From the NCBI RefSeq assembly GCF_041886205.1, contig NZ_CP169029.1: 64,000 bases of DNA; one strand, written 5' to 3'. This document shows positions 1 through 53,830 of this stretch, piece by piece. A program made the translations under genes and the position numbers. The first letter of the stretch is position 1; every line of letters begins with the position of its first letter. The notes below the pieces were generated by a model. That model saw only the letters and a list, made by a program, of their open reading frames with translations. It was not told where the DNA came from and ran no database searches. This DNA comes from Escherichia coli. Its GTDB lineage: Bacteria > Pseudomonadota > Gammaproteobacteria > Enterobacterales > Enterobacteriaceae.

Positions 1-1642
1 GACCTGTTTTCGGATTACGGTAACGATTTTCTGTGCCAAAACTCCCCATTCCGTGCCCCATCTGCAGGTTATTAATGCAGCCAAAGCTGGCGTTATCAAA
101 CAGCAGAATGGTGACCTTAATTCCCTCCTGTACGGCAGTTTGCAGCTCTGAGTGCAGCATCATGTACGAACCATCGCCTACCATGGCATACACCGGCTGC
201 TGAGGTTTTGCCAGCTTCGCACCAATAGCCGCTGCGACCTCATACCCCATGCAGGAGTAACCATACTCCAGATGGTAACTGTCAGGCGTTTTAACCTGCC
301 AGAGGCGTTGCAAATCCCCTGGCAGCGATCCGGCCGCCCCCACCACAATGGCGTTATCCTCAATATGCTGGTTAATGAGCCCCAACACCCGCGTCTGGGT
401 CAGGTGTGTGTTGAGCGTTTCACCGTATTCCATTAGCTGTGCATCAAGGTGCCCTGCCACTTCGGGAACGTCGTCAGGATGCCACTGGCGTTCCCACAGT
501 CGACAGCATTCATCGTGCCAAGCGGATTTCGCATGGGCAATCGCCTCCCCCCAGCCACTACGATAATCTTTCAGTGCGTGGGTCAACGCTGTCAGACCAG
601 TTCGGGCATCGGCAATGAGCGCGGTGGCATCCAGCTTCAAGGAGTCAAACTCAGCCACGTTCAGCAGCAGGAACTCGACGTCGGGATGAGAAAAGAGCGC
701 CTTAGAGCCGGTAGTAAAATCCGTCAGGCGCGTGCCGATGCCAATCACTAAGTCAGCCTGCGGCGCAAGCTGGTTGGCAGCCATTCCGCCCGTCACGCCC
801 ACCCCGCCCAGATTAAGCGGGTGGTCACTTACCAGCGCCCCCTTACCGGCCTGGGTTTCGGCAAACGGCAATTGCAGCACTTCAACAAATTCCCGTAACG
901 CCTCATGCGCACCGGAGTAACGCACGCCACCGCCGCACACCACCAGTGGACGGCGCTTGCGGGAAATCAATGCATGAGCCTGCGCCAGTCGCTGCGGGTC
1001 AGGCGGACGGCGTTCAATATGATGCACCCGACGCGCAAAGAAACTCAGGGGGTAATCCCAGGCCTCCCCCTGCACATCCTGAGGTAGGCAAATGGTCACC
1101 GCCCCTGTATTTGCGGGGTCAGTAAGCGTTCGCATCGCACTTAACATCGCGCTCATAAGCTGTTCAGGACGGTTGATGCGGTCCCAGTAGCGGGAAACCG
1201 GGCGGAAGCAATCGTTGGTACTGATGCTGAGATCGTGATACTGCTCGATCTGCTGCAACACGGGGTCAGGCTGGCGGCAGGCGTAGATATCCCCTGGCAG
1301 TAGCAGCAGTGGAATGCGGTTCGCCGTGGCCGTCGCTGCCGCCGTCACCATATTGGCAGCGCCAGGCCCAACGGATGAGGTGACAGCAAAAATACGCTGA
1401 CGGCGATGCTGTTTGGCGAATCCCGTCGCCATATGGGCAATCCCCTGCTCGTTACAGCCTTGCATCACCTGCAGATGACCAGGATCCTGCTCCAGCGCCT
1501 GGCCGATACCGAGCACGTTACCGTGCCCAAAGATCGTTGCCACGCCCTCCACAAAGGGCGTTTCTTTACCATCAACGCTAACATATTGTTGGTTAAGAAA
1601 TCTGACCAGAGCCTGGGCCATAGTCATACGTTCGGTTTGCAT
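1..1642 (-). CDS. iolD: ThDP-dependent IolD-like enzyme (3D-(3,5/4)-trihydroxycyclohexane-1,2-dione hydrolase family); partial, 3' end lies beyond window start
   Basis: Manual minus-strand translation from ATG at 1640-1642 gives [50 protein letters not shown]..., a ThDP-enzyme N-terminal domain; SD agggggtttt upstream; start abuts iolA stop. Confidence 0.65.
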
Positions 1643-1653
1643 AAAACCCCCTG

Positions 1654-3159
1654 TCAGCCCAGAGTCGGCATGGAGAACGCTGCACCTGTCTCCTGCTGCA
1701 TTTCCGGCCAGCGTGCAGTGATGGTTTTCATTCGGGTGTAGAAACGCACGCCATCGTTCCCGTGAACATTGAGCGCGCCAAAAATGGAACGTTTCCAGCC
1801 ACCGAAACAGTGGAATGCCATTGGCACCGGGATCGGCACGTTGACCCCCACCATACCCGCCTGCACCTCTTCACAAAAGCGGCGTGCGCAGCCACCGTCA
1901 CGGGTGAAAATGGCCGAGCCATTACCATATTCGTGTCGGTTAATCAGATCCACCGCGCTGGCGTAATCTGCTACGCGCACCACAGAAAGCACCGGTCCGA
2001 AAATTTCTTCTTTATAGATGGTCATCTCCGGGGTGACGTTATCGAACAGAGTCGGCCCAACGAAATAGCCCTGCTCGTGCCCTTTCACGCTGAGGCCACG
2101 CCCGTCCACACGCAGGTTAGCCCCCTGAGCTTCGCCACTGTCGATATAGCCCAACACTTTGCTGCGGTGTGCGGCGGAGATCAGCGGCCCCATCTCGTTT
2201 TCTGGCGTCTGGTTCAGGCCAGGTCCGACGCGCAGCGAAGCGATCTTTTTTTCCAGCCGGGCGCAGAGTTCATCAGCCGTTTTATCGCCAACCGCCACCA
2301 CCACGGAAAGCGCCATGCAGCGTTCTCCTGCCGCACCATAAGCTGCGCCCATTATGGCGTTTGTCGCCATATCCATATCGGCATCCGGCATTAAAATGCA
2401 GTGGTTTTTCGCACCGCCGAGCGCCTGACAGCGCTTACCGTGGGCGGACGCAGTCAGGTACATGTATTCGGCAATCGGTGTTGAACCGACAAAACTGACG
2501 GCCTGCACGCGCGGGTCGGTCAGGAGCACATCAACGGATTCTTTATCGCCCTGCACCACGTTGAATACGCCGTCCGGCAGGCCTGCCTCTTTCAGCAGTT
2601 TCGCCAGCGCGAGCGCCAGAGACGGATCTTTTTCCGACGGTTTCAGCACGAAGGTGTTGCCTGTCGCCAGAGCTATCGGGAACATCCACATTGGCACCAT
2701 CGCCGGGAAGTTAAACGGCGTGATCCCGGCGCAGACCCCGAGCGGCTGCATCAGTGAGTGGCTGTCGACACCTGTGCCAACGTTCGCAGAGTGTTCGCCT
2801 TTTTGCAGATGTGGGATGCCGCAGGCGAATTCTACCACTTCCAGACCACGGGTCAGTTCACCTACTGCATCTGAGAAGACCTTACCGTGTTCTTCACTGA
2901 TAATACGGGCCAGACGCACCATATTCTCTTCAAGCAACGCTTTGAAGCGGAACATCACACGCGCGCGCTTGAGTGGAGCAAAACGTGCCCACGCGGGAAA
3001 CGCCAACTGTGCTGCGGCAATCGCCTGTTCGGTTTCCTGTGCCGTACTCATCACCACCTGGCGAATCTGCTCGCCAGTGGCCGGGTTGAAGATAGCCTGA
3101 ATGCGCTGGCCTGAACCGGTGACACATTCGCCGTGAATAAAATTCGCTACCGTCTCCAT
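1654..3159 (-). CDS. iolA: CoA-acylating (methyl)malonate-semialdehyde dehydrogenase
   Basis: 501-aa ORF; ALDH-family hallmarks (VLKPSEKDP, catalytic Cys in GERCMALS); directly upstream of iolD-like gene. Confidence 0.8.
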
Positions 3160-3449
3160 CCTTAACCTCTCGCTGTTGATACGTGACTGTTACCTGAACG
3201 TTATGTACTGAACACTATATATGAAACAAATATTCCATTTTAAGTTGAAATAAAATAAATAATGATTATTGTGATCAAGGATGGATTTTTATGTGAACAG
3301 CCAGCATCACTGACTCAGCCTGAGCTATTAGGAGTTTCGGGCGAGGAAATGACTGAAGCTTCTGTTTCATTTTTGCTGCCAGGTGGATGGCCAACATTTA
3401 AAAGACGCGGTTTTGCGTTTAGAATCATGAGACTGGATAGGGGGATAAC

Positions 3450-4310
3450 ATGACGACAGCAACCAGCCTGAACGAACTACAAAAGCAAATCCGCGATCGC
3501 TACGATAGCCTGAGCAAAAGGCTGCAGCAGGTCTCCCGCTATGTACTGGATAATACGAACAGTGTCGCGTTTGATACGGTTGCGGTCATAGCCGAACGTG
3601 CCGATGTTCCACCCTCTACACTGATTCGTTTTGCCAATGCCTTTGACTTCACCGGCTTCAACGAAATGAAACAGTTATTTCGTATGCACCTGGTGGAGGA
3701 AACCGCCAGCTACAGCGATCGTGCGCGACTGTTCCGCGAAATGGAGAGCGAAGCCGTACCTGAAACGCCGCTCGATATTTTGCAGGAGTTCGCCAGTTCG
3801 AACTCGCAGGCGCTGCAGCAGTTGGCTGCCCGCGCCGAACCGGAGATGCTGGAGCACGCCGTACAACTACTGGCCTACGCCGACACCATTTACATCGCCG
3901 GATTACGCAGATCCTTTAGCATTGCTGCTTATCTTACCTATGCTTTAAGCCACCTAGAGTGCCGCCCTATTCTGCTTGACGGGATGGGCGGCATGCTGCG
4001 CGAACAGATCAGCCGTATTAAGGCGTGCGACATTGTGGTGTCGATCAGTTTCTCGCCGTACGCGGAAGAAACGGTGATGGTCAGCAAAACCGCCGCCAGC
4101 GTCGGCGCTCGGCAGATTGTGATTACGGATAGCCAGATCAGCCCACTGGCAACGTTCAGTGATCTCTGCTTTGTGGTGAAAGAGGCTCAGGTGGACGCAT
4201 TTCGGTCTCAGTCGGCAACATTGTGTCTGGTGCAGTCGTTAGTGGTCGCGCTAGCTTACCGTTTAGGAGATAAAAAACATAATAATACCCAGGAAAACAG
4301 TAACCAATAA
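3450..4310 (+). CDS. RpiR/MurR-family transcriptional regulator (IolR-like repressor candidate)
   Basis: 286-aa ORF, N-terminal HTH and C-terminal SIS-type sugar-phosphate-binding region; divergent from the iol catabolic genes. Confidence 0.75.
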   Translation: MTTATSLNELQKQIRDRYDSLSKRLQQVSRYVLDNTNSVAFDTVAVIAERADVPPSTLIRFANAFDFTGFNEMKQLFRMHLVEETASYSDRARLFREMESEAVPETPLDILQEFASSNSQALQQLAARAEPEMLEHAVQLLAYADTIYIAGLRRSFSIAAYLTYALSHLECRPILLDGMGGMLREQISRIKACDIVVSISFSPYAEETVMVSKTAASVGARQIVITDSQISPLATFSDLCFVVKEAQVDAFRSQSATLCLVQSLVVALAYRLGDKKHNNTQENSNQ

Positions 4311-4505
4311 TAACCAATGAACTCCTCCCCCGAGTCCATATAAGAGTAAATGATTCGGTGCCAGTAGCGATACAGACTTCAGATTGAATATCAACTGTAC
4401 TGCTATCTCCCTAAAAGGTCATGCCCCATGTGAGCGTACAACGAGAGCCTTAATCCTTAATAGCGAAGAAGATTTCTCTAGTAGGTGGTAATGTAACCCA
4501 GATAT

Positions 4506-4898
4506 AACGGCTTCTTTAAACAGTTTATTTACCATCGTTTTCTTACCTAGCAGGCGCTGAAGTTCTTTAATTTTATTCATGGCGGCAGCAAGTTCAGAGG
4601 CCGGAATACCCTGTTCTTCGGCTGTCACAGTAGTGAAGCTTCCTTCAAGGTAATGATACGCCAGAGAAATAACTGGCTGGCAGCCACACCGTGTTGCCGG
4701 GCAACAAGGGAGACCGTCATTCCCGGTTCAAAACTCTGCTGAACAATAGCGATCTTTTCCTGTGTAGTACGCCGTCTGCGTTTCTCCGGTCCTAAGACAT
4801 CAATCATCTGCTCTCCAATGACTAGTCTAAAAACTAGTATTAAGACTATCACTTATTTAAGTGATACTGGTTGTCTGGAGATTCAGGGGGCCAGTCTA
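4506..4898 (-). mobile_element. insC: IS2 remnant (IRL plus degenerate, frameshifted insC/orfA; insD deleted)
   Basis: Reverse complement of 4869-4898 reads TAGACTGGCCCCCTGAATCTCCAGACAACC (IS2 left IR); ORFs 4625..4852 and 4419..4628 together match IS2 InsC ([49 protein letters not shown]... [23 protein letters not shown]) with a frameshift; similarity stops near 4506. Confidence 0.75.
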
Positions 4899-4900
4899 TA

Positions 4901-5115
4901 CACTACCTCAGGTAGATGATGAGATCAGATACAGGGATCAACTGACGGTGAGCGCAGGCCCGCGAGTGCCCTGATTTAGCGCTGGTTTTGCTTTCCCATC
5001 GAAGGGCCCATACATCATCACGCCCGCGAAACAGTCGACAAAATAACGCAACTTTCTCATCCGTGGATAATACGGAAACGCACTGCACAGGACTCTGCGG
5101 TTTACGTCACCATTC
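4901..5115 (-). pseudogene. N-terminal fragment of an unidentified island gene, cut off at the IS2 end
   Basis: Minus-strand ORF ...VQCVSVLSTDEKVALFCRLFRGRDDVWALRWESKTSAKSGHSRAC... ends with a stop 3 nt before the IS2 IRL; second frame ORF 4938..5132 overlaps. Confidence 0.3.
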
Positions 5116-5328
5116 AATCCCATAAGCTTCAAGTTATGTTTGCCCTCAGTGCAGCTAATTCATCACTGTCAGATTTATGAACCATAGTCGTTACCTGTAT
5201 CCGATCCACTGAGGCACCACGGCAGAAATTCGGGTCCCCTACACTGATGACAAAGCCGCCCTCTTCTGCCTATTAACTCAAGCACCTCCCAACAACTTAC
5301 AGAAACTTAATCCTAATACAACTGTAAT

Positions 5329-5892
5329 TCAGTTGTGTCGTGGTCGGCCGCGGTTGCTTTTTTCGGGAAGCCTGCTACGGCCCAGAATAATACCGTGTTC
5401 TTTCTGATCCTGTTTAGCCAGATAGCTAAGGGCGTAACGTAAGTTGTCTACCGCGGACTTATCACTATAGTGCATCACGTGATCGATACGCACCGGGTAT
5501 TTGTCTTTAGCCCGGCAAAGGTGAAAGTAACCCTCCCCTTCCGTGATCTGCCTCCAGATATCTCCCAGTTGCCTGGATATCTGATAAGAGTTCTTGTGAC
5601 GTTGCCCATCCAGGTAGCCGACAAAATGAATATGAAGCCCTTTGTTTTGTGTATATTCCATTACCCAGTAATATCCCGCCAACATCGATTGGGTTTCGCT
5701 AAGTAAGCGGTATATTTCCATACACATACTGTGCTTACAGCCATGACCAAAACTGGGCGTGTCTTTCCTGTAGGCAAAATCAATTCTGAAAGGTAACAGT
5801 TTAGAAAAACGTTGAAACAGACCTTCCATGTGTTCATTCACGTCTTTCAGAATCATGAAGTCCATTTCGTAATTGGGATTAGCATTATACAT
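5329..5892 (-). CDS. YagK/YfjJ-family (inovirus Gp2-like) cryptic-prophage protein
   Basis: 187-aa ORF in same orientation as alpA and the split gene, matching CP4-57-type gene order (alpA - yfjI-like - yfjJ-like); family assignment from recalled sequence similarity only. Confidence 0.4.
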   Translation of the reverse strand: MYNANPNYEMDFMILKDVNEHMEGLFQRFSKLLPFRIDFAYRKDTPSFGHGCKHSMCMEIYRLLSETQSMLAGYYWVMEYTQNKGLHIHFVGYLDGQRHKNSYQISRQLGDIWRQITEGEGYFHLCRAKDKYPVRIDHVMHYSDKSAVDNLRYALSYLAKQDQKEHGIILGRSRLPEKSNRGRPRHN

Positions 5893-6858
5893 TTTATAGT
5901 CCTTACTTTATAAAACTGACAGGAAAGTGGAATTACATAAATACTGAGAGTACAGAAACGCCGTACCGCGGCATTAATAAACGAGGTAACCAGCAGCACA
6001 GACAACCTGATAAAACTGTTTCGTATTACCTCATTACAGTAATAGGGTAATGATTCAGAATACAGTAAGACTCTCTTAAACTGAGGACCAGAACGAATTA
6101 CAATAAAAAACACACCTCATATAATTGAGTTTAAGAAAGCACCATTCAATTACTTACAGGAAATAATCTGATCTTCACAAAAGTCAGCATTGAATAGCCA
6201 CAGGCAACATCGCTATTAGTATTGCCGTACCATTAAGTAAAAACAGAGACTCTGCAGAGAGAGCCTACAGATATTTAATCTCACAATAAGAAGATTATTT
6301 CATACAGAAAAGATTATATTTACCCATAAACTGTAACGGAGCTATAACGTACGAACTAAAGACAATATACTCTAATAGTGTTCTGGTACGTAACTAGTAT
6401 TAAATACAAACCAGACATACATTCAGTGGATTAACTTTCTCAATATTACGCTATAAGTGTAGTAACATAATTTACACATAACTAAACTCCATACACCACC
6501 ACACTGTAGTGTATGGAGATATATGTATTACGCACATACAGAATACTTAGCATAAAGAGGAGTGATATTACGATAGAAAGAGATAAGACAACATAACAGA
6601 TAACATAACTCCCATTAATAATACTAATTAACCTAAATTATTTATTGAACACGAAAACAATGAAGGCCCCACCTCACCTCAGACTAAAGCCGACAATATC
6701 CTGAGCAACACTCTATCCAATAGTAAATAGTGGTTACACCAGTTATATTTACTGACTGACCTGTACCAGAGTTTTCTAATACAACGCTGACATGGTAAAG
6801 ACATTAGTCTCCTCCGCAAGTAGCAGAGGAGACTATATGTACTCAACGATTAAGTCGT

Positions 6859-7191
6859 TCAGAGGTCAAAGTTAGGTGCGACACACAACGTTTTTCCCTC
6901 AATAACCGGTACAACTCTGTTTTGTTCATACAGTAAATCCAGTAACCAGTTGATTTTATCCTTTTTCCGGAAACGGTTCGGACCACGCTGTAAAATGTCA
7001 TTTTTTTTCATACAGAGGATCCCCTTCTCAATACAATAGCTTTTTATCCAGTTGAAAAGTTCAAGCTCCTCTGGAATGAGTCGCACAGGTACGGTCAGGG
7101 CAGAGTTGTCAAAAGTTAACGGATTAGACAACCGCACATACTCATTACCGTACCATATTGCTAATTCTCTCGCCATTTCTGCAGTGTAAGG
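6859..7191 (-). pseudogene. C-terminal part of island gene split by IS186 (YfjI/DUF3987-like, putative replication-associated)
   Basis: ORF 6859..7176 is in frame with ORF 8530..9660 once IS186 and one TSD copy are removed. Confidence 0.6.
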
Positions 7192-7202
7192 GGAAATATC
7201 CC

Positions 7203-8541
7203 CATAAGCGCTAACTTAAGGGTTGTGGTATTACGCCTGATATGATTTAACGTGCCGATGAATTACTCTCACGATAACTGGTCAGCAATTCTGGCCCATA
7301 TTGGTAAGCCCGAAGAACTGGATACTTCGGCACGTAATGCCGGGGCTCTAACCCGCCGCCGCGAAATTCGTGATGCTGCAACTCTGCTACGTCTGGGGCT
7401 GGCTTACGGCCCCGGGGGGATGTCATTACGTGAAGTCACTGCATGGGCTCAGCTCCATGACGTTGCAACATTATCTGACGTGGCTCTCCTGAAGCGGCTG
7501 CGGAATGCCGCCGACTGGTTTGGCATACTTGCCGCACAAACACTTGCTGTACGCGCCGCAGTTACGGGTTGTACAAGCGGAAAGAGATTGCGTCTTGTCG
7601 ATGGAACAGCAATCAGTGCGCCCGGGGGCGGCAGCGCTGAATGGCGACTACATATGGGATATGATCCTCATACCTGTCAGTTCACTGATTTTGAGCTAAC
7701 CGACAGCAGAGACGCTGAACGGCTGGACCGATTTGCGCAAACGGCAGACGAGATACGCATTGCTGACCGGGGATTCGGTTCGCGTCCCGAATGTATCCGC
7801 TCACTTGCTTTTGGAGAAGCTGATTATATCGTCCGGGTTCACTGGCGAGGATTGCGCTGGTTAACTGCAGAAGGAATGCGCTTTGACATGATGGGTTTTC
7901 TGCGCGGGCTGGATTGCGGTAAGAACGGTGAAACCACTGTAATGATAGGCAATTCAGGTAATAAAAAAGCCGGAGCTCCCTTTCCGGCACGTCTCATTGC
8001 CGTATCACTTCCTCCCGAAAAAGCATTAATCAGTAAAACCCGACTGCTCAGCGAGAATCGTCGAAAAGGACGAGTAGTTCAGGCGGAAACGCTGGAAGCA
8101 GCGGGCCATGTGCTATTGCTAACATCATTACCGGAAGATGAATATTCAGCAGAGCAAGTGGCTGATTGTTACCGTCTGCGATGGCAAATTGAACTGGCTT
8201 TTAAGCGGCTCAAAAGTTTGCTGCACCTGGATGCTTTGCGTGCAAAGGAACCTGAACTCGCGAAAGCGTGGATATTTGCTAATCTACTCGCCGCATTTTT
8301 AATTGACGACATAATCCAGCCATCGCTGGATTTCCCCCCCAGAAGTGCCGGATCCGAAAAGAAGAACTAACTCGTTGTGGAGAATAACAAAAATGGTCAT
8401 CTGGAGCTTACAGGTGGCCATTCGTGGGACAGTATCCCTGACAGCCTACAAAACGCAATTGAAGAACGCGAGGCATCGTCTTAACGAGGCACCGAGGCGT
8501 CGCATTCTTCAGATGGTTCAACCCTTAAGTTAGCGCTTATG
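7203..8541 (+). mobile_element. IS186 (IS4 family), complete 1339-bp copy
   Basis: 23-bp terminal inverted repeats CATAAGCGCTAACTTAAGGGTTG at 7203-7225 and 8519-8541 (rc); flanked by 11-bp direct duplication GGAAATATCCC at 7192-7202 and 8542-8552 in a GGGG-N6-CCCC target. Confidence 0.85.
7252..8370 (+). CDS. insL: IS186 transposase (DDE, IS4 family)
   Basis: 372-aa ORF with C-terminal YRLRWQIELAFKRLK motif typical of IS4-family transposases; lies between the IS186 inverted repeats. Confidence 0.85.
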   Translation: MPMNYSHDNWSAILAHIGKPEELDTSARNAGALTRRREIRDAATLLRLGLAYGPGGMSLREVTAWAQLHDVATLSDVALLKRLRNAADWFGILAAQTLAVRAAVTGCTSGKRLRLVDGTAISAPGGGSAEWRLHMGYDPHTCQFTDFELTDSRDAERLDRFAQTADEIRIADRGFGSRPECIRSLAFGEADYIVRVHWRGLRWLTAEGMRFDMMGFLRGLDCGKNGETTVMIGNSGNKKAGAPFPARLIAVSLPPEKALISKTRLLSENRRKGRVVQAETLEAAGHVLLLTSLPEDEYSAEQVADCYRLRWQIELAFKRLKSLLHLDALRAKEPELAKAWIFANLLAAFLIDDIIQPSLDFPPRSAGSEKKN

Positions 8542-9660
8542 GGAAATATCCCCCTCTTCACCGCTCGAATGGTAAATAAGTCCTGCCAGTCTTGCCATAT
8601 ACTCTGCATTTTTAGCAGCATATTCCCGGCAATGTCTTAAAGGCCCCAATCCCCCCAGCTTCGATTCCACATCATTGTAATAATCCGTCCAGATTCTGGC
8701 AGCCTGAGGAGAAAAGTGAAGGCAACGTCGTTCACCACTCATCGCCAGACTTTCATCAATAAGCTCATTGATCCTCTCTTCAAACAAATCCTGATACTGT
8801 GATGAATAATTATCTCCGGTTATTATCCTTGTCCCCTGCGTTGATGTTGGTTGACACATCAAAAACCTTGCATGATGTCCTGACGTTTTCACAATTTCTT
8901 TTTTTCGCGTACAAAAACCTTTGTGGTAAACATCAGGCTGAATCATCACCGATATCGTCAGTCTTGGCTCCTTCAAATTAATTCCGGGAGATGATTTCCT
9001 GTCGATGAAAAGAGAACCTCCATCCCACAAAGTGTTAATAATTCCCAGTTTACTCATGGCCCGGCTGTCAAAAATTACCCCCCCTTCACTGGATACAAGA
9101 GCAAAAGAGCGATTGCTGTCGGAATAATATTTTAACATTCCCTCTATCGTTGTCTCATTAAAAATTGTTCGACGTATCTGCGGCGGAACAGGAGGTTTAT
9201 TCAGATGCGTTTCAAGCTCTGATTCTGTTGCCTTGTAATCTTTACCGGCACGAATCTCTTTATGAAATTTTGATTCCAGCGCTTTTTGTTTTTGCTCCCA
9301 TATTTCCTTTTCTGTACTGTAATTCTCAACCAGTTTCGCGTATTCTTCCGCCAGGGCTTCATCCCTGAGATAAAATGCTTTCATAAACACTTTATCCACG
9401 GTCGTTTTCCTTTCACCGGAATCAGCCAGAATCAGAGAGTAAAGATTAACAGGCCCATGTAAATTTCCAGGTCTGCACACGTCAATCTGATTCTGACAGG
9501 CAATTGAGATCGCTGTTAATGCGGATGTTGCCACCATAGCCAAAGGTGCCTGTGTATTTTTTTGAGTTTCAATTATTGCATTTCTCACCAGCGGTGGTAG
9601 TGCATATATCGGATAAGGATTTTCTGGTGCAAGTAAGCACATAAAAGCCTCTCTTTTCAT
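8542..9660 (-). pseudogene. N-terminal part of island gene split by IS186 (YfjI/DUF3987-like); as-is ORF reads into the IS to a stop at 8530
   Basis: 376-aa ORF 8530..9660; last codons (EEGDISHKR) are encoded by TSD and IS186 IR; reconstructed uninterrupted gene would be 483 aa. Confidence 0.6.
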
Positions 9661-9674
9661 TAATGGGTTAGTAA

Positions 9675-9717
9675 AATAGCAGCAAATCCCGCTACAATAG
9701 CGAAAATAGCTGCTATT
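9675..9717 (-). promoter_or_regulatory. Nested palindrome (AATAGCAGC-N24-GCTGCTATT with inner CGCTA-CAA-TAGCG) in leader of the split gene; candidate operator
   Basis: Seen directly, 15-57 nt upstream of start codon at 9660; repeated in the duplicated copy at 10141-10180. Confidence 0.4.
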
Positions 9718-9860
9718 CAGACCTGATGCTCTGAGAAATACAGAGCATTTGTAGATCTGATGTTTAATAAACCGATAAGGTTAATTCAGTGAAGACTGTA
9801 TTATTCACCACGAAATATCATTCATATTTCTCATTCTTAATACCTCCAGAAATTATTTCA

Positions 9861-10190
9861 CTAATACCTTTCCCCCGGTCTTTTCCCTTTCTCCAGAACC
9901 ATAGTGTAAATATTAACGGCCCCACGTAAATTTCCGGGACTGCATACGTCAACCTGATTCTGACAGGCAATTGACATCGCTGTTAATACTGACATTGCAA
10001 CCAGAGTCAGAGGTACTTGTTTATTGTATTGAGCTTTAATTATTGCCTTCCCTATCATTGATGGTCATGCATATACTGAATACGGCATATCCGGTTTGAT
10101 GTAAGACATAAATGCTTCCTTTTTCGTAATACGTTTCGGTTATAGCAGCAATTACCGCTACAATAGCGACAATAGCTGCTCTTTCAACAA
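9861..10190 (-). repeat. Partial tandem duplication of the 5' end and leader of the split island gene (truncated paralogous ORF 9861..10058)
   Basis: 9861-10190 aligns to 9380-9730 at roughly 85% identity by eye; ORF 9861..10058 (MIGKAIIKAQYNKQVPLTLVAMSVLTAMSIACQNQVDVCSPGNL...) parallels the N-terminus of ORF 8530..9660. Confidence 0.6.
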
Positions 10191-10284
10191 TGAATGCTGG
10201 AAATTCTGTTTATCAATTAAACTTCTGGATAAATTGTTCTTATGCTTCTTTTTCCTCCTGAGGTGATCACGTGATGACAAAAAC

Positions 10285-10593
10285 TTATCTGCTCATGGTC
10301 ATATCTGAAGAAAGCGTATGTCGCACTTCGTCATTAACACCTTTGACTGCTGATCTGGCAGGTACAGTATGTAAAGTAAGCCATTCGTCAATAGCTGATG
10401 AACGCCAGCCCACAGAACCACTACCAAGACGTACCGGCCTGGGGAAGGTTGCATCGTAGTATTTCGATAACGGATTCATTTTTTCGTAAATTGTCGAACG
10501 AGATATACCTAACAATTGGCTCAGTTCAGGCATCCGTAAGATGCGTGAAGGAGTCCAGCAGTATCCGGATTGATCTGGCATTTTATCCCCCAT
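10285..10593 (-). CDS. alpA: AlpA-family phage/island HTH regulator (start codon uncertain; alternatives at 10581 or 10665)
   Basis: Contains ILRMPELSQLLGISRSTIYEKMNP...YDATFPRPVRLGSGSVGWRSSAIDEWL, matching the AlpA signature (YDATFP...SVGW...EIDEWL). Confidence 0.6.
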   Translation of the reverse strand: MGDKMPDQSGYCWTPSRILRMPELSQLLGISRSTIYEKMNPLSKYYDATFPRPVRLGSGSVGWRSSAIDEWLTLHTVPARSAVKGVNDEVRHTLSSDMTMSR

Positions 10594-10789
10594 AGTGTGG
10601 TGAACTGTCGTTACAGTTTGTATTCCCCGGGTAAATTTGTCTGCGTAAAAAAATGGGCTGAGCAAAAAGACAATAAATAATTAAAAATCAATACGATAGA
10701 AAACAACAGCATTATTGTTATTTTACTTTCACCTTATCGCTGTCGATTCTCATTATCATTCATTGGTAAAAAACAGCAAAAGAGGCCCT

Positions 10790-11553
10790 GGTAATGACTC
10801 CAGTCAGTAGTACAGTGTTTTCGACAAATGAACCAATGGCTTTTCGTGAATTTCCAGGGAGCGTGAAAAGCAAATCGTTTTCCGGGCTGGTCGTTTGATG
10901 TGAGTACGAAGTGTCAGATTGTTGCACTCAATGCGCCGGGTAAATATCTTGCCGACAAGATGCTTATCCTGTGGCATTTCTCTGGTATAACTGCTCCGGT
11001 TGTCTCTGGTTATCATGCCTGTGGAGAATGGCTTCAGGAGTTCCGGCAACTCACGACATGTTTCATCAGTGCGAGGACCAAAAGTGTAAGCCAGCACACC
11101 TCCAGATTTGGTGTTATACGCATACCAGTGCCACTGCTGACGAGCTTTGTTTTCGACAAAACTCCATTGTTCATCAAGTTCGCAGATAAGCGTCACATCG
11201 GCACTGGCGACTGGAGATGTGGTTACTTTGCGTGGTGAGCGTTTTATAAAGTGAGAATGACGGTGTTGATATCCACCTTCAGCGTTCTGGAACTATCGCG
11301 AACCCCGACTCCGTTATGAACCATTTCAACAATTTGCTCTTTAATGCCTGGTTTTCGGGTTTCGTAGATGTAATTCAGTTGAAATACACACGTTTGCAGG
11401 ATTAGCACTGGAAACGCTCATGATCTGAGGTGCTGTGATCATAATGGTACACTTTATAGGAATTACAGCTGGGAGAATGTACTGTAACTGTTGCCATATG
11501 GTCTCCAGATACCAATAGAATACCACATTAATCTATCGTCAGAAGGCATCACC
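10790..11553 (-). mobile_element. Degenerate IS1-family element (764 bp; insA frameshifted, insB N-terminal region degenerate)
   Basis: Terminus GGTAATGACTCC at 10790; ORF 10804..11196 matches IS1 InsB C-terminal half (QWHWYAYNTKSGGVLAYTFGPRTDETCREL...KTICFSRSLEIHEK); manual translation upstream gives InsA-like MATVTVHSPSCNSYKVY... then, after a frameshift, LNYIYETRKPGIKEQIVEMVHNGVGVRDSSRTLKVDINTVILTL; other terminus ...GCATCACC at 11546-11553. Confidence 0.65.
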
Positions 11554-11693
11554 GGGGCCTTCTGACATAATCTGTTAATACGTGTACTATTACCCTGTTC
11601 AGAAAATATTGATTCAAAAATGAAAACCAGTTAACAGAAAAGCAAAATGATATAATGTTAAAATTTTATATAGTGCAATAAAAGGAGAATGTT

Positions 11694-13511
11694 ATGTATA
11701 ATTTTATCACTATAATGTATGATGTCTTTTCATGTTTTGGTGTTCTGGCTAAAAACCAGAATACCCGTGACATCCGAAATATTAAAAATTTTTCCTCACA
11801 TCAATATTCACTGGGCGACATGTTTGATGAATTAATAAACATTATTGATAAAGAACAAGTATTGAGTACAGAACAACGAAAAGTTATATTTAGGAGATAT
11901 GAAGATCTCTATGTTAAGCTAATGCACTATTCTGTTTTTACAGACCAAACACATCAAATAATAAAACAAAAATATTTTAATGACATTGTACCAATGATTC
12001 TCGCACTCGACATCAGGAACACATATCGCCCGGATAATGAGATGGCATTTTACTATCATATTCATTCTTTTCTCACTCAGATACCGGATAATGAGGATGA
12101 TATATATCATGCTGCAAGGACATATCTGCGAAATTACGTTAAGTTATGTTTATCCGGATACACACCAGCGAATGCGCATTTCAAAGATATCTTTGATGGC
12201 GTATATGAATTCATTCGTAATATTCGCAAAAACAGTACACCAGGAAAAACAAAACTTATCGCAACTATCAACACATGCAAAGAAACCTGTAAACATCTGC
12301 TTTATTTAAGTAATGAAGACAAGGAAAAAATAATTTCTGACTTAGATAAAGTTCAGGTTGCATGTTATTATCTCACTATATTACTGGCTTTCGAAAGACG
12401 AACTTCATTAACAAGCACCCTGGCAACTTTATATAAAATGCTGATAAGCGAAAGAGAAGTTTCAGAATATGAATGCCAGTTATTATATTTAACCAACCCA
12501 ATAGATGTAATGAATATACTGAACAAATACATATATTACTTTCCTAATGAAAACTCACCATTTTATACACTGAAAATTGACAGTGCATTATCGTGGGATG
12601 CCATTGACGCAATACGAGACTATAGTATTTCTGATATTTATCTTTATCCTGAACAAAAAACAATAAATTGTGTCGTTGAGATTGAAAACATTGTCTTTGG
12701 CGGTTACATTTATACATTGAACAACGGCGTCACATTACAAAACATAGAAAACACTTTAAAAGATTCTTCATGCCATTATGTCTTAAATGGCTATACAGAA
12801 TTTGTTAACTGTTTGATACAACTTACTTCAGGAAAGACTGAAAGTGTTCATCGCACCATCAATAAACTGAACTATGAGAAATTACCTTTTGGATTTATCA
12901 TTGCCGCGTTTGCTATACTAAAGATAGCATTTAAAATAAAATTCAGTAAAAATCATGTAAATATCCGAGCATTATTAAATGACATCAATTATTTTATGAC
13001 TTATCAGGGCGAGTCCATTAACCTTATTTCACTGGATCACGAATACCCAGAGTCCTGTCTTCAAAATGACACAAACACATATTTATTAGGAAGAGTAATA
13101 TTTCTGTATAACTCAATGATTTATAAGTTCATAAACTGTCAGGAACATGAAACCAATAACATTCACTCAGCTATGATAAATAACCTATTACAGGAAGTTG
13201 ATATAGCCCTTGGTAAAATAAATAACATTATAGACAGCAGAAACATATCAGCCCCCCATGAACTGGCAAATATTCTTACCCGCGAAAAAATACTTACAAC
13301 ACGGGAAAAAAAAGGAAACCTGATAAGCCTGTTTGATGGATTCACTTTATTCCATTGTGTTGGAATGATAACCTTTCTTATCCATTATCTCAGAACACCT
13401 GAAGAAAAAGTTGAAAATATATTTATGTTATATGGTGCAGATAAAAACAATAAACTACGCAGAAGACTGATTTATGACGCACTAGGAATAATTCAGTCTC
13501 AGCAGGAGTGA
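11694..13511 (+). CDS. Hypothetical 605-aa protein, AT-rich cargo gene in the int-alpA hotspot; no recognisable catalytic motif
   Basis: Long uninterrupted ORF in very AT-rich DNA; SD aaaggaga 5 nt upstream of ATG; TATAAT at 11651-11656; convergent with integrase. Confidence 0.7.
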   Translation: MYNFITIMYDVFSCFGVLAKNQNTRDIRNIKNFSSHQYSLGDMFDELINIIDKEQVLSTEQRKVIFRRYEDLYVKLMHYSVFTDQTHQIIKQKYFNDIVPMILALDIRNTYRPDNEMAFYYHIHSFLTQIPDNEDDIYHAARTYLRNYVKLCLSGYTPANAHFKDIFDGVYEFIRNIRKNSTPGKTKLIATINTCKETCKHLLYLSNEDKEKIISDLDKVQVACYYLTILLAFERRTSLTSTLATLYKMLISEREVSEYECQLLYLTNPIDVMNILNKYIYYFPNENSPFYTLKIDSALSWDAIDAIRDYSISDIYLYPEQKTINCVVEIENIVFGGYIYTLNNGVTLQNIENTLKDSSCHYVLNGYTEFVNCLIQLTSGKTESVHRTINKLNYEKLPFGFIIAAFAILKIAFKIKFSKNHVNIRALLNDINYFMTYQGESINLISLDHEYPESCLQNDTNTYLLGRVIFLYNSMIYKFINCQEHETNNIHSAMINNLLQEVDIALGKINNIIDSRNISAPHELANILTREKILTTREKKGNLISLFDGFTLFHCVGMITFLIHYLRTPEEKVENIFMLYGADKNNKLRRRLIYDALGIIQSQQE

Positions 13512-13698
13512 AACGTTAAAACAGGCAAATTGTTTTTTATAAATAGGAGATTGTTGAGTAATCCCCTGTTTATAAAAATACGCTTTCCTGACGATCTGAT
13601 AATTATCAGCTCAATACATTTGACATAAAAGCGGTTCCTTAATTACTACTGCCACGATCACATATCAAATCATGATCGTACAATATACATTTTCACTA

Positions 13699-14901
13699 TT
13701 ATTTATTCACAATTTGAGACATCACATAATCCGCCCATGCCTGCATCATCGGTACACGCTGCTCCAGTAGATCAGTACGATGATATGCCGCCTCAACCTT
13801 ATTTTTCAGCGTATGAGCGAGCGCCCTTTCCGCCAGATCCCGCGAATACCCCTGTTCACTACACCAGTCCCTGAATGTTGAGCGAAAACCATGTGCCGTG
13901 GCAACTCGCCCCGGAATGTCACTGACGGCTTTCTTTTTACGCAGAAAACTTGTCAACACCATATCGGAAAGGATCTGCTGCTTTCTGGGTGAAGGGAACA
14001 CCAGTTCATCATGCAGGCCACGTATATTTTCCAGAATGTAAATAGCCTGCCGGGATAAAGGAACACGATGCTGTAGCCTGGCTTTCATTCTTTCTGCAGG
14101 TATAGTCCATACCCGCTTATGAAAATCAATTTCAGCCCAGCGCATTCCCCTGGCTTCGCCCGAGCGAGTTGCTGTAAGTATCACCATTAATAACAGTGCG
14201 CGGGTAACATTATAAGGTTCATCACTATACACACTGGTCGCCACAAAAAGCGGTAACTGCCTCCAGGGCATTGCTGGTTGGTGTTCATCACGTCCTCTTG
14301 TCTGCTGAGGAAGCAAATGGTCAACCACATCAACAGGATTTGCCACACAAAAACCGTGCGCCCATCCCCACTGCATAACAACATGAATGCGCTGTTTAAC
14401 CCGGCTTGCCGTTTCTGACAAGGTTAACCAGACTGGACGCAGTGTTTCTGCCACGTCCGCAGCCGTAATCGAATCCAGCGTTTTTGCTCCCAGTTGAGGA
14501 AACGCGTAATTCTCAAGCGTCGATAACCACTGCCTTACATGCTTTGGATTTTCCCATCCTGGAGACAATTCTGCATGTACACGCCTGGCTGCATCGGCAA
14601 ATGTTGGGATAACGACTTTCTCAGATTCAGCCTTTTTAATCTCCAGAGGATCATCACCTGCAGCAAGTTGCTCTCGCATTATCCGGGCAGTACGTGCAGC
14701 TTCAGCAATACTGACCTCTGGGTAAGTTCCCAATCCAGCATTACGTCTTTTTTGTGTCACCGGACTTACATAACGAAAAACCCATTTCCCCCGCCCCTTT
14801 ACTGAAGAAGGATGAAGGGTCAGTCCGGTAATTCCCCCATGGGGCAATGGTTTGTCATCAGGTTTGATATGTCTTGCTTTCGTATCCGTCAATACTGCCA
14901 T
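13699..14901 (-). CDS. int: Tyrosine site-specific integrase, P4/CP4-57 IntA-like
   Basis: 400-aa ORF; N-terminal LTDTKARHIKP...FRYVSP arm-binding-type region and C-terminal catalytic motifs (HGFRSTFRDW, LAH, Y in EAAYHR). Confidence 0.9.
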   Translation of the reverse strand: MAVLTDTKARHIKPDDKPLPHGGITGLTLHPSSVKGRGKWVFRYVSPVTQKRRNAGLGTYPEVSIAEAARTARIMREQLAAGDDPLEIKKAESEKVVIPTFADAARRVHAELSPGWENPKHVRQWLSTLENYAFPQLGAKTLDSITAADVAETLRPVWLTLSETASRVKQRIHVVMQWGWAHGFCVANPVDVVDHLLPQQTRGRDEHQPAMPWRQLPLFVATSVYSDEPYNVTRALLLMVILTATRSGEARGMRWAEIDFHKRVWTIPAERMKARLQHRVPLSRQAIYILENIRGLHDELVFPSPRKQQILSDMVLTSFLRKKKAVSDIPGRVATAHGFRSTFRDWCSEQGYSRDLAERALAHTLKNKVEAAYHRTDLLEQRVPMMQAWADYVMSQIVNK

Positions 14902-15044
14902 ACGCTAATTCCCGTCACTCTGGTATGCCATCCAGTATGCCATTAGTCTCTCGCTTCACTAAGAATACATTAGATAATATCGGACAACAAAAAGTGTAAT
15001 ACATTGTTTATAATGAAATTATATAACACCCCTGGATTAAGTCA

Positions 15045-15525
15045 GATTTATTTCAGGCGGTCCCCCTCACCGCCATATTTAAAGAAGAGCTCGTACGAAA
15101 GTACGGGCTTTTTTTTCGTATATTGCACACACCGGGGGGATGAGAATCCCCGACCGGGGGTCGACAACTGGCGGCAGCCAGTTGGACAGACCGTGAACGC
15201 AGTGAGCGGGCTGCCCGCAGGGCGAGCGAAGCGAGTCAATCCCCCCCTCACCGCCATATTTAAAGAAGAGCTCGTACGAAAGTACGGGCTTTTTTTTTCG
15301 TATATTGCACACACCGGGGGGATGAGAATCCCCGACCGGGGGTCGACAACTGGCGACAGCCAGTTGGACAGACCGTGAACGCAGTGAGCGGGCTGCCCGC
15401 AGGGCGAGCGAAGCGAGTCAATCCCCCCCTCACCGCCATATTTAAAGAAGAGCTCGTACGAAAGTACGGGCTTTTTTTCGTGTATTGCACACACCGGGGG
15501 GATGAGAATCCCCGACCGGGATACT
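15045..15525. repeat. Tandem direct repeat array, unit about 181 bp, about 2.7 copies
   Basis: Units begin near 15061, 15241 and 15421 with near-identical sequence; each has a terminator-like hairpin plus T-run (gagctcgtacgaaagtacgggcttttttt) and hairpins GGGGAT-GAGA-ATCCCC and CAACTGGC-N4-GCCAGTTG (loop differs between copies, stem conserved). Confidence 0.9.
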
Positions 15526-15528
15526 TAG

Positions 15529-16215
15529 TTAATGCAACGGTTCACTCTTTGTCGCCGCGACTAATGGGCGAATTTTGTCACGAGTCTCCCAGACCGGAGG
15601 GATTTCCTCCAATTTAGTGACAGAAGCTCGTACAAAAGGCACTCGTGCAAGAGTCATAATCGTATCCAACCAACGGTCACGAATAATGCGATCCGCCCTT
15701 TCATGACTCGGGTCATCCAGCTCAATAACACAGACTATTTTATTGTTCTTCTTTGAAACCAGAACATAATCCATTGCCATGCCATTATAAATTGCAAAGA
15801 AACGCTTTCTTTCTTCTTCGCTAAACTCAGGTTGTTCTGGATAGTTGAGCAAGCGCCCCAGAGAGACCTGGCAATGGATATGACAATAATGTCCAAACCA
15901 TTTCTCCAGATTATCGAAATACATTTTTTCACAACGCGTGATTAACCACTCTTTTCCTTCCAATAAAATACCTTCGGCAACCATTCCCTGAAATAACTCA
16001 TCTCGTTCTTGCCAACGAGAGTCACGATAGGTTTTCTGCGGTATATAGGTCCTTGTCGACGACTTAGCAGCAGGGGAAGTTGCAGATGAAGGGACTGGTT
16101 GCGATTTAGCGATGATTACCGATGAGGCAACTTTTCGGAGTGTCAATTTTCTGGCAACAGCAAAACCGGCGACAAATGCAATTGTCAAACAAGTTACAAA
16201 AGCCATAAAGCTCAT
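15529..16215 (-). CDS. Membrane-anchored protein with DUF2726-like (nuclease-fold) C-terminal domain
   Basis: 228-aa ORF: N-terminal hydrophobic helix, Ser/Pro-rich linker, C-terminal globular domain; family call from recalled similarity only. Confidence 0.45.
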   Translation of the reverse strand: MSFMAFVTCLTIAFVAGFAVARKLTLRKVASSVIIAKSQPVPSSATSPAAKSSTRTYIPQKTYRDSRWQERDELFQGMVAEGILLEGKEWLITRCEKMYFDNLEKWFGHYCHIHCQVSLGRLLNYPEQPEFSEEERKRFFAIYNGMAMDYVLVSKKNNKIVCVIELDDPSHERADRIIRDRWLDTIMTLARVPFVRASVTKLEEIPPVWETRDKIRPLVAATKSEPLH

Positions 16216-16761
16216 AATTAATTTTCACTTATCCATGTTGATTATATTTCATTACCAATGTTACTCGCTGAAGCGTGTTACATGCCAACAATGCAACGAT
16301 CAATATATAGTTAGTATCATGTTTTGATTATTACAACCATCCCTATTTTGCCATTGCAGCTTGCCTTCCACAAAAAAAATAACAACAAACAATATTAGCC
16401 AAAGAATTAATTAAGATTAACCTTGCATTTATAATATTATCCCTAAAGAATAAATCAGAGGAATATATTCGGTGTTAATCAGTCAGTCAAATTATGGCCC
16501 ATTGTTGATTAAACCTCATAAGCAAAATTGGCACCAGATCTCCTGTACAGGTTGAATGGCCGAAAAAAGATAGGCAGATGCTCGCTTTTTTGGCTTCTGG
16601 AAGAAAAACTCTCCGCACTGGCAGTATTACACTGGTCTGATGCTATGACGAAAAATGCCTGGTAAGAGTATCTAAACCAGACTCCAGTTCAGCTTATCAA
16701 CACGCTCAAAGTCGCCCCCCTGAACGCTAACCTGAAGTTAAAGTCTTTGCTGTTAATGAAA

Positions 16762-16790
16762 TAAAACAAAGCCCGGTTCGCCCGGGCTCT
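16762..16790 (-). terminator. Intrinsic terminator downstream of phoH
   Basis: GC hairpin AGCCCGG-TTCG-CCCGGGCT followed on the minus strand by a T-rich run. Confidence 0.5.
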
Positions 16791-51867: not shown

Positions 51868-52355
51868 TATGACGCTGCTTGTTTAAAGCTGACTGGTTTT
51901 ATTGGAATAGTGCAATAGTCAACATCATACATTATAACATCAGTTACTTTTCCACAAAGAAACTAATCCATTTAAGCGAATATCTCTGCACCTAATAGTT
52001 ATAAATGCCATTTAACAGCCAGTTATAGTACCACTTGAAACTATATTACCAACAATAATTAATAGCTTTCGTAACAATTTCCTTATCTTTAATTTGTATT
52101 TTGCTAAGATTTATCTTATGCTCACAAGTCGTATTTCCAGAGGGGGATAGTTAACAATCTTATATTTCCCTCTGCGCGCCTTTCCTACCCGCAGTATATA
52201 GTGCAAGCGGTATGAGGAAAGGGAGATTTCACAAGGATGTTATACTCAAAGTAGACAATCCTGATCTCAAGCGTACGTATTGTCCATGCGATGAATAAAG
52301 GAAAAGTTATGAAACACAAGCTTTCTGATCCTACCCACGTAATGTGGACACGGCC

Positions 52356-53222
52356 CTAAGCGAGATTATGGTTTTCAAATTGTTCCGGGCTGAGACCGCC
52401 ACAGGCACTGTGACGACGCCAGCGATTGTAATCACACTCGATATAATTAAACACCGTTGCCCGCATTATTTCCCGGCTGCTAAAGCGTTCTCCATGGATA
52501 CATTCCACTTTCAGCGAATGAAAGAAGCTTTCCACGCAGGCATTATCGTAGCAGCAACCTTTTGCGCTCATACTTCCACGCAGATTATGCCGCTTCAGTT
52601 GCGCCTGATAATCTGCTGAACAGTACTGGCCTCCACGGTCCGTGTGAACGATAACGTTCCGGGGCCTCTTACGCCGCCACAGCGCCATCTGCAGGGCATC
52701 GCAGGCCAGTTGCGCCGTCATGCGTGGCGACATTGACCAGCCAATAACGGCACGTGACCACAGGTCAATGACCACTGCCAGATACAGCCAGCCTTCATCT
52801 GTACGTAAGTACGTGATGTCTCCTGCCCACTTCTGGTTCGGGCCACTGGCGTAAAAATCCTGCTCCAACAGATTTTCTGACACAGGCAGGCCGTTTGCGC
52901 GGTAGCTGACCGGGCTGAACTTCCGGGAGGCCTTTGCCCTCAGTCCCTGACGGCGCAGGCTTGCCGCCACGGTTTTTACGTTAAAGGGGTAACCCTGAGC
53001 ACGCAGTTCATCCGTCAGGCGTGGGGCACCGTAACGCTGTTTTGACCGGGTAAAAGCCGCGAGGACAACGCTGTCGCAGTGTTGGCGGAACTGCTGACGC
53101 GTGCTTATCCTTGTCCGCCGCTGACACCACGTATACCAGCCGCTGCGGGCCACCCGGAGCACGCGGCACATTGCTTTGATGCTGAACTCAGCCTGATGTT
53201 TTTCAATAAAGACATACTTCAT
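52356..53222 (-). CDS. insF: IS3 transposase OrfB (DDE integrase domain)
   Basis: 288-aa ORF matching IS3 InsF. Confidence 0.9.
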
Positions 53223-53518
53223 TTCAGGCGCTTCGCGAAGTATGTCGCGGCCTTTTGGAGGATAGCCAGCTCTTCATCCCGTTCTGCCAGCTGGCGTTTG
53301 AGACGTGCAATCTCGGTAGACATCTCCAGTTCACGTTCAGAAGACGTCTGCTGATTTTGCTGTTTACTGCGCCAGTTGTAGAGTTGTGATTCATACAGGC
53401 TGAGTTCACGGGCTGCGGCAGTAACACCGATGCGTTCAGCAAGCTTCAGGGCTTCACTGCGAAATTCAGGCGAATGCTGTTTACGGGGTTTTTTACTGGT
53501 TGATACTGTTTTTGTCAT
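53219..53518 (-). CDS. insE: IS3 OrfA (HTH)
   Basis: 99-aa product from [19 protein letters not shown]... Confidence 0.9.
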
Positions 53519-53830
53519 GTGAGTCACCTCTGACTGAGAGTTTACTCACTTAGCCGCGTGTCCACTATTGCTGGGTAAGATCAGCTGCTGGCGCTGTCGG
53601 CACGGCGACAGTTGTCGGTGTGGCAACGGCTGTTGGTGTGGCGACGTTGGCAGTTGTTGCAGCAAATGACAGTGGCGATGGCGGTTCTCATAACACCTCA
53701 ACCACCACGTCCACTACACGCTAATACTGCTTTAACGCGTCGAAATTAAAGTTAAATGATACCCGGTTGCGATATTCGTACCGGGCTTTAGAGATTTGCA
53801 TTTTTTTAATTAACCTTTCAAGGATTAAAG

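Follow-up and report, generated by a model that had tools for sequence, protein, structure and literature searches.

A young IS186 insertion splits a yfjI-like island gene of Escherichia coli at a recurrently used target site

Introduction

SaiSree and colleagues reportedly described, in 2001, an insertion hot spot for IS186 at the lon promoter of E. coli B. The published target of this element is 5′-GGGG(N6/N7)CCCC-3′, and further hot spots, at fimA/menC, have been recorded in mutation-accumulation lines, where IS186 inserts in either orientation and single sites are hit repeatedly (Lee et al. 2016, PMC5009759). With respect to the target gene considered here, the closest described relative is YfjI of K-12 (b2625), a DUF3987 protein encoded by the cryptic prophage CP4-57, which lies at ssrA and whose full gene order is intA - yfjH - alpA - yfjI - yfjJ. 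Experiments have identified one DUF3987 protein, the PriCT-DUF3987 helicase AgaPH, as an ATP-dependent 5′-3′ helicase that works together with a primase of the archaeo-eukaryotic type (AEP; PMC11724360). AgaPH is encoded by a pAgo-carrying mobile element that is integrase-bearing and tRNA-associated, with the AEP primase gene adjacent to the helicase gene.

Here, we analyse a 64-kb stretch of E. coli DNA (64,000 nucleotides, referred to below as the window) in which an IS186 copy splits a yfjI-like gene carried by an island at serX. As at the lon promoter of E. coli B and at fimA/menC, the same IS186 occupies a palindromic G4…C4 target with a 6-nt core, and the site shares with the known hot spots a GC-ended duplication, insertion in both orientations and repeated independent hits. 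It differs from them in that the target belongs to the coding sequence of an accessory island and the hits are found in natural isolates. The element itself is indistinguishable from K-12 MG1655 IS186A (15390–16728, insL1), which also has GGGG…CCCC flanks but differs in its surroundings, since it is intergenic, has another N6 core and is bordered by a 10-bp duplication, GGATCACTCC. The island module mirrors the order of CP4-57 (int - alpA - yfjI - yfjJ), at serX instead of ssrA, and its DUF3987 protein can be aligned colinearly with K-12 YfjI along 465 residues at 41% identity, with GDIS present in both at the point of insertion.

Results

A complete IS186 copy occupies a canonical target

The element and the repeats that delimit it are as follows.

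7203..8541, plus strand: complete IS186 copy, 1339 bp, 1339/1339 identical to K-12 MG1655 IS186A
7203..7225, plus strand: left terminal inverted repeat of IS186, CATAAGCGCTAACTTAAGGGTTG
8519..8541, minus strand: right terminal inverted repeat of IS186, perfect reverse complement of the left repeat
7258..8370, plus strand: insL transposase gene, 370 aa, DDE type, antisense to yfjI (Pfam DDE_Tnp_1, E=1.6e-26)
7192..7202, no strand: left copy of the target-site duplication, GGAAATATCCC, abutting the IS186 end
8542..8552, no strand: right copy of the target-site duplication, GGAAATATCCC, abutting the IS186 end

The identity and limits proposed for the element in the initial annotation stand, as every base between 7203 and 8541 equals K-12 IS186A, and so do its perfect inverted repeats, which are exactly 23 bp long with zero mismatches. 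Within the 64-kb window, the two ends of the element are the sole occurrences of this 23-mer, and a shuffled-sequence control gave 0.00 expected matches with 3 mismatches tolerated. The transposase does not differ from K-12 InsL1 and scores 133 bits with the NCBIfam model transpos_IS4_1 (IS4 family transposase), whose cutoff is 115. Full-length near-identity, 23-bp repeats, a single DDE open reading frame and a G4-N6-C4 target are thus all found in this copy, as expected of IS186. In other genomes, PGAP names the same element 'IS4-like element IS421 family', which is a naming matter only.

The 11-bp sequence GGAAATATCCC stands directly against both ends of IS186. By the inverted-repeat definition the duplication is 11 bp long, with a 1-bp ambiguity on each side: the exact direct repeat reaches 13 bp (7191–7203 and 8541–8553) when the terminal C and G of IS186 are counted. 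Before insertion the sequence read GTGTAA-GGGG-AAATAT-CCCCC-TCTTC, so that the repeats beside IS186 form a genuine target duplication, made up of the core and part of the G/C runs, inside the published GGGG(N6/N7)CCCC motif. The hot spot of GGGG-N6-CCCC type that had been suggested for this position is borne out as well, as GGGG-AAATAT-CCCC in the yfjI-like gene is the single site of the GGGG(N6/N7)CCCC motif in the window. On the coding strand the target reads GGG GAT ATT TCC CCT and encodes the conserved G-D-I-S-P.

Removal of IS186 restores a gene with intact homologues

The disrupted gene is read from the minus strand and now consists of two pieces.

8542..9660, minus strand: 5′ fragment of the yfjI-like gene, codons 1–373 counted from the ATG at 9660; likely start at the ATG at 9642
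6859..7202, minus strand: 3′ fragment of the yfjI-like gene, last 110 codons and stop, in frame with the 5′ fragment after excision

In-silico deletion of 7203–8552 joins both fragments in frame into a 1452-nt open reading frame on the minus strand, which runs from the ATG at 9660 over 483 aa with no internal stop. The restoration of a continuous gene, as initially annotated, is therefore sound, but the length given for it probably is not. A second ATG at 9642 is preceded, 5 nt upstream, by the Shine-Dalgarno sequence AGAGAGG (9648–9654), and intact alleles annotated by PGAP start at the equivalent ATG and measure 1434 nt, or 477 aa. For these two reasons, the true product is probably a protein of 477 aa rather than 483 aa.

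The restored protein matches Pfam DUF3987 (PF13148) over residues 37–396 with E=5e-84; the score of 282.9 bits compares with a gathering cutoff of 27, and positions 1–363 of the 364 in the profile are covered. It also matches PHROG 2373, 'DNA helicase', with E=2.5e-62. Alignment with K-12 YfjI pairs residues 9–468 with residues 6–459 (E=6e-128) and passes colinearly through the junction, with GDIS conserved in K-12 exactly where IS186 has inserted. The assignment of the gene as YfjI/DUF3987-like is thereby upheld. NCBIfam offered no model for YfjI, or for the AlpA-like, Gp2-like and 605-aa proteins of the island, and no sequence-related protein was found among solved structures.

Was the gene whole before IS186 arrived? 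When the restored gene with its flanks was used as query against 5426 complete E. coli genomes, an uninterrupted 'YfjI family protein' gene was recovered in about 1370 of them. The closest intact gene, that of strain C11, differs by 1 nt in 1452, and at this lone difference the window equals strain ZYB62, which leaves no private change in the window at that position. Six genomes have an intact gene whose corresponding part equals the 3′ fragment at 100% identity. Since the restored frame is free of stops and has uninterrupted, full-length and near-identical homologues, we conclude, as had been claimed, that the yfjI-like gene was intact before the insertion.

As it stands, the gene is split after Ser373 in the 483-aa numbering, which is Ser367 in the 477-aa numbering. 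The current 5′ reading frame extends 3 codons into IS186 (HKR) and ends with a stop at 8530, which from the likely start gives a product of 370 residues, 367 of them native and the other three HKR. This truncated product stops ~20 residues short of the end of the conserved DUF3987 core and also lacks the C-terminal tail of ~90 residues. Because of this loss, the insertion most likely inactivates the yfjI-like gene, as far as its sequence allows us to judge. Nevertheless, about 94% of the DUF3987 core survives in the 5′ fragment, which might still be partly active. Where other genomes share the insertion, PGAP labels the equivalent 5′ piece 'YfjI family protein, missing C-terminus'.

The split gene belongs to a CP4-57-like module

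The following features surround the split gene.

5329..5892, minus strand: yfjJ-like or 'inovirus-type Gp2' gene (PGAP name in related genomes), downstream of yfjI
9861..10058, minus strand: remnant of a second DUF3987 gene, 65-aa open reading frame (Pfam DUF3987, E=5.8e-8, N-terminal profile positions 1–42)
10285..10581, minus strand: alpA-like regulator gene, upstream of yfjI (Pfam Phage_AlpA, E=5e-19)
13699..14901, minus strand: island tyrosine integrase gene (Pfam Arm-DNA-bind_3, Phage_int_M and Phage_integrase)
15062..15075, plus strand: right end of the island, att core CCCCCTCACCGCCA, equal to the 3′ end of tRNA-Ser (serX); homology to the island-free strain wlxctx60 begins here

The module reads int - 605-aa ORF - IS1 remnant - alpA - DUF3987 remnant - yfjI::IS186 - yfjJ/Gp2-like, so that both a tyrosine integrase and the order alpA - yfjI - yfjJ are present, as expected of a CP4-57-like tRNA island. 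Matches of the 5329–5892 product to Pfam REP_ORF2-G2P and YagK_YfjJ_C are weak and below cutoffs. The right boundary of the island falls at 15061/15062, and beyond the att core come 2.5 copies of a 182-bp repeat. ARAGORN, applied to the window and to four related loci, reported no tRNA in any of them; the tRNA-Ser was located through the island-free relative wlxctx60, and island-free relatives show the order DUF2726 - tRNA-Ser - ghrA at the empty site. The right end with its tRNA-Ser 3′ core thus lies in the window, while the left end of the island and the intact serX lie outside it. Strain 675SK2 shares only positions 4948–15118 of the window, which indicates that it carries the same island module at a different chromosomal site.

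Decay is visible elsewhere in the module. The remnant of the second DUF3987 gene is also present in genomes with an intact yfjI and is for this reason older than the IS186 event. Likewise, the neighbouring AEP primase gene is a remnant both in the window and in strains with intact yfjI.

IS186 has inserted repeatedly at the same 11 bp

Junctions of both types, one for each orientation of IS186, were searched in the 5426 genomes, about 1390 of which carry the gene. IS186 was found at this yfjI site in 16 genomes in the orientation of the window and in 3 genomes in the opposite one; 15 of the genomes with the insertion probably have the C allele. The cases that tell separate events apart are given below.

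Window: duplication GGAAATATCCC; reference orientation; island at serX
675SK2, AR_0069 and SCU-104: duplication GGAAATCTCCC on both sides; orientation as in the window; adjoining clpA (675SK2, SCU-104) or ycdU (AR_0069)
FAHZZU7007: duplication GGAAATGTCCC on both sides; orientation as in the window; a different island, at thrW/proA
OkiPb01676: duplication GGAAATGTCCC on both sides; IS186 in the orientation opposite to the window
C 691-04A: duplication GGAAATGTCCC on both sides; IS186 in the orientation opposite to the window; flanks clearly diverged

A mutation arising after insertion would alter one copy of the duplication only, and each of the three duplication alleles also occurs in genes that IS186 has left whole (A in C11, G in ZYB62, and C in many strains, O157:H7 among them). 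For this reason, and also because both orientations of IS186 are seen, the insertions are separate: natural E. coli show at least four independent insertions at these 11 bp, and the number is probably five. What had first been treated as a one-off is therefore a recurrent natural hot spot. At the equivalent point, K-12 yfjI reads GGC GAT ATA TCT and offers no IS186 motif, which makes the hot spot allele-specific. IS186 is present at a median of 3 places per E. coli genome.

Some IS186 copies in tagH showed 31 nt of similarity to the yfjI flank; shared ancestry was considered for them and rejected, as tagH simply provides another canonical target, GGGGGATATCTCCCC.

Judged by sequence decay, the insertion is young

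How recent is the event? The two fragments in the window show no private substitutions and no decay, in contrast to the 5′ fragment of SCU-104, which carries an acquired frameshift. The exact IS186-yfjI junction of the window was found at 100% in none of the 5426 genomes. These two observations together support the description of the insertion as recent, in a relative sense only: the perfect duplication is in keeping with a young event but does not by itself establish one, and the dating is loose. By a rough estimate from typical E. coli substitution rates, zero substitutions over a neutral target of ~1.5 kb would fit ages up to about centuries or a few millennia.

In the collection, wlxctx60 and 6EVA come closest in core sequence: they are ~100% identical over positions 27000–51000 of the window, and the whole island is absent from both. 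Consequently, the collection holds no sister genome with an empty site within the gene, and the age cannot be fixed from it.

Discussion

Our results make it very probable that this locus records a standard IS186 transposition into a formerly intact yfjI-like island gene. A complete, standard IS186 (IS4 family, DDE transposase) would have jumped into the yfjI-like gene in the replication/regulation module of the integrative serX island, its transposase picking the palindromic GGGG-N6-CCCC motif in the coding sequence; cuts staggered by 11 bp, followed by gap repair, would then have left GGAAATATCCC on both sides of the element. Such chemistry at this target is what knowledge of the IS4 family would predict. 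The evidence supports a disruption that is real, young and ordinary, that is to say textbook IS186 behaviour, already annotated as such in comparable genomes, and yfjI::IS186 opens no new mechanism or question. What is mildly new is the existence of a natural, allele-specific IS186 hot spot in yfjI, and our literature search found no paper linking IS186 with yfjI. The site shows, in wild genomes, the target specificity that had been measured in laboratory mutation-accumulation lines, and it may serve as a handy marker for IS186 activity or for strain lineages. In terms of annotation, two 'hypothetical / partial YfjI' pieces plus an IS186 are to be understood as a single helicase-like gene that was disrupted recently.

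Could the assembler have misplaced a multicopy element here? Repeats such as IS186, with its several places per genome, are a classic source of misassembly. However, both junctions are exact, a perfect 11-bp duplication lies in the canonical target, and the same architecture occurs at this site in independent complete assemblies; a misjoin would yield no target duplication, and we regard an artefact as extremely improbable. A different question is in which strain the event took place. The insertion might have happened outside this genome, and the disrupted yfjI::IS186 been brought in together with the island, through horizontal transfer or recombination from another strain, in which case it may be older than the host lineage hints. 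The island is a recent gain or loss, given that core relatives of ~100% identity are without it, and the C-allele insertion occurs in two chromosomal contexts, beside clpA in 675SK2 and SCU-104 and beside ycdU in AR_0069, which shows that disrupted modules can move or recombine. Against this stand the undecayed fragments and the absence of the A-allele junction from all 5426 complete genomes, and we consider origin in a donor strain unlikely, though far from negligible. It would change where IS186 inserted, not what the event is.

The recurrence of the insertions raises, in turn, the question of whether they have been selected. Inactivation of an island helicase gene might be favoured as domestication, immobilisation or relief from a cost, beyond what a mutational hot spot would produce. 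At least four independent insertions in one gene among ~1390 carriers, together with the extra frameshift that the SCU-104 lineage later gained in yfjI, are consistent with such an explanation. But every hit falls on a single canonical GGGG-N6-CCCC motif, and mutation-accumulation lines, in which selection does not act, had 11–16 hits at individual sites of this type (PMC5009759). Moreover, ~98% of the carriers keep yfjI intact, and selection for inactivation thus appears improbable. A bolder version is that the GDISP-coding motif is a recurrent target whose knock-outs are selected, with IS186 acting as a site-specific off switch for island replication. If true, loss of the helicase might immobilise or detoxify the island and so favour repeated IS186 knock-outs; we give this version slightly less credit still. 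Target preference of IS186 for a canonical motif remains our reading of the recurrence.

What the loss of this gene means to the island can be approached through its protein. The yfjI-like product is a DUF3987 protein and a putative 5′-3′ helicase, an activity suggested by its domain and by comparison with AgaPH. The likeness between the two is one of domain and gene context: both occur on integrase-bearing, tRNA-associated elements, but AgaPH carries PriCT whereas no PriCT domain was found in the YfjI-like protein of the window, and the AEP primase gene, adjacent in the case of AgaPH, lies, as a gene or a remnant, two genes away from yfjI. As the AEP primase gene is already a remnant, what we presume to be the replication module of the island was probably degraded beforehand and the phenotypic cost of the insertion is probably small; the biological cost may even be nil. 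By eye, we also noted a Walker-A-like SGERKT in the yfjI-like protein, and a putative Walker B that reads SSE in the allele family of the window and SDE in K-12 YfjI.

Apparent mosaic structure of the yfjI gene family

The 3′ part of the yfjI-like DUF3987 gene together with its downstream spacer (6436-7203) shares only 93% identity with ZYB62, an E. coli strain in which yfjI is intact, and the 5′ part of the gene and the remaining island share 99.6% identity with the same strain. From these alignments, the yfjI gene family appears to be a mosaic whose ancestry switches near the yfjI 3′ end. Features of the module and its surroundings are as follows, those marked ZYB62 having been mapped from the annotation of that strain or alignment to it.

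9861-10058, minus strand: 65-aa ORF left over from the N-terminal part of another DUF3987/yfjI-like gene, between alpA and yfjI
6805-6835: inverted repeat shortly past the yfjI stop codon, its 13-bp arms TAGTCTCCTCCGC / GCAGAGGAGACTA separated by a 5-nt loop
about 4900-5180 and about 4497-4807: remnants, respectively, of a gene annotated as 'TOTE conflict system archaeo-eukaryotic primase' and of a transposase (ZYB62)
10804-11497: IS1 pseudogene inside the island (ZYB62)
52322-53592: IS3 copy in the core region (ZYB62)

The inverted repeat is not followed by a T-run on the coding strand. The 65-aa DUF3987 remnant is also found in genomes whose yfjI is intact and therefore the module containing yfjI has been shaped by an older deletion or recombination. 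Among the loci inspected, an intact TOTE-type primase gene (2361 nt) was present only in strain AR_0069; a literature search for 'TOTE conflict system' gave no match.

IS186 insertions in other genomes

Variants of the 11-bp IS186 target duplication define A, C and G alleles of the interrupted gene, the window carrying the A allele. In 675SK2 and SCU-104 the C-allele yfjI::IS186 module sits at the serW locus, adjoining clpA; in AR_0069 the same module sits at the serX locus, adjoining ycdU. This distribution suggests either that paired serW/serX islands have undergone recombination or an inversion between them, or that the site has been hit independently on further occasions. In FAHZZU7007 (NZ_CP194907.1; positions 8777-11560 of the inspected locus), IS186 occupies the identical yfjI site as a G allele, beside an Hhe anti-phage gene and on a different island, which is integrated at the tRNA-Thr adjoining proA.

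A second natural IS186 hot spot is the type VI secretion gene tagH, inspected in MMC-J-0020 (positions 1635-2973 of the locus). The target there is GGGGGATATCTCCCC, with a 10-bp duplication, and junction searches gave matches in many genomes, both orientations being represented.

The island and its right end

In wlxctx60 (NZ_AP045833.1) and 6EVA, whose adjacent core is ~100% identical to the window, the whole island is missing (window 1-15061 compared with wlxctx60), and with it the iol/mmsA/rpiR genes at 1-4310. Of the two island ends, the one carrying the integrase is the more distant from the intact serX. Two features lie at or beyond the right end.

15062-15520: tandem repeat with 2.5 copies of a 182-bp unit
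15529-16215: DUF2726 gene, within the compared stretch 15137-16762

The DUF2726 gene stands where ZYB62 and AR_0069 carry ycdU; in ZYB62, ycdU is followed by IS3-dgcT-pgaABCD. The window's arrangement is shared by C11 and wlxctx60, so it reflects natural variation rather than a recent deletion. The final 19 nt of tRNA-Ser form the beginning of every full 182-bp unit; in the first copy, the 14-nt att core, located at the island junction, comes first. An island-free relative has more copies than the window, and in AR_0069 a stretch similar to the repeat is named 'RtT sRNA' by PGAP.
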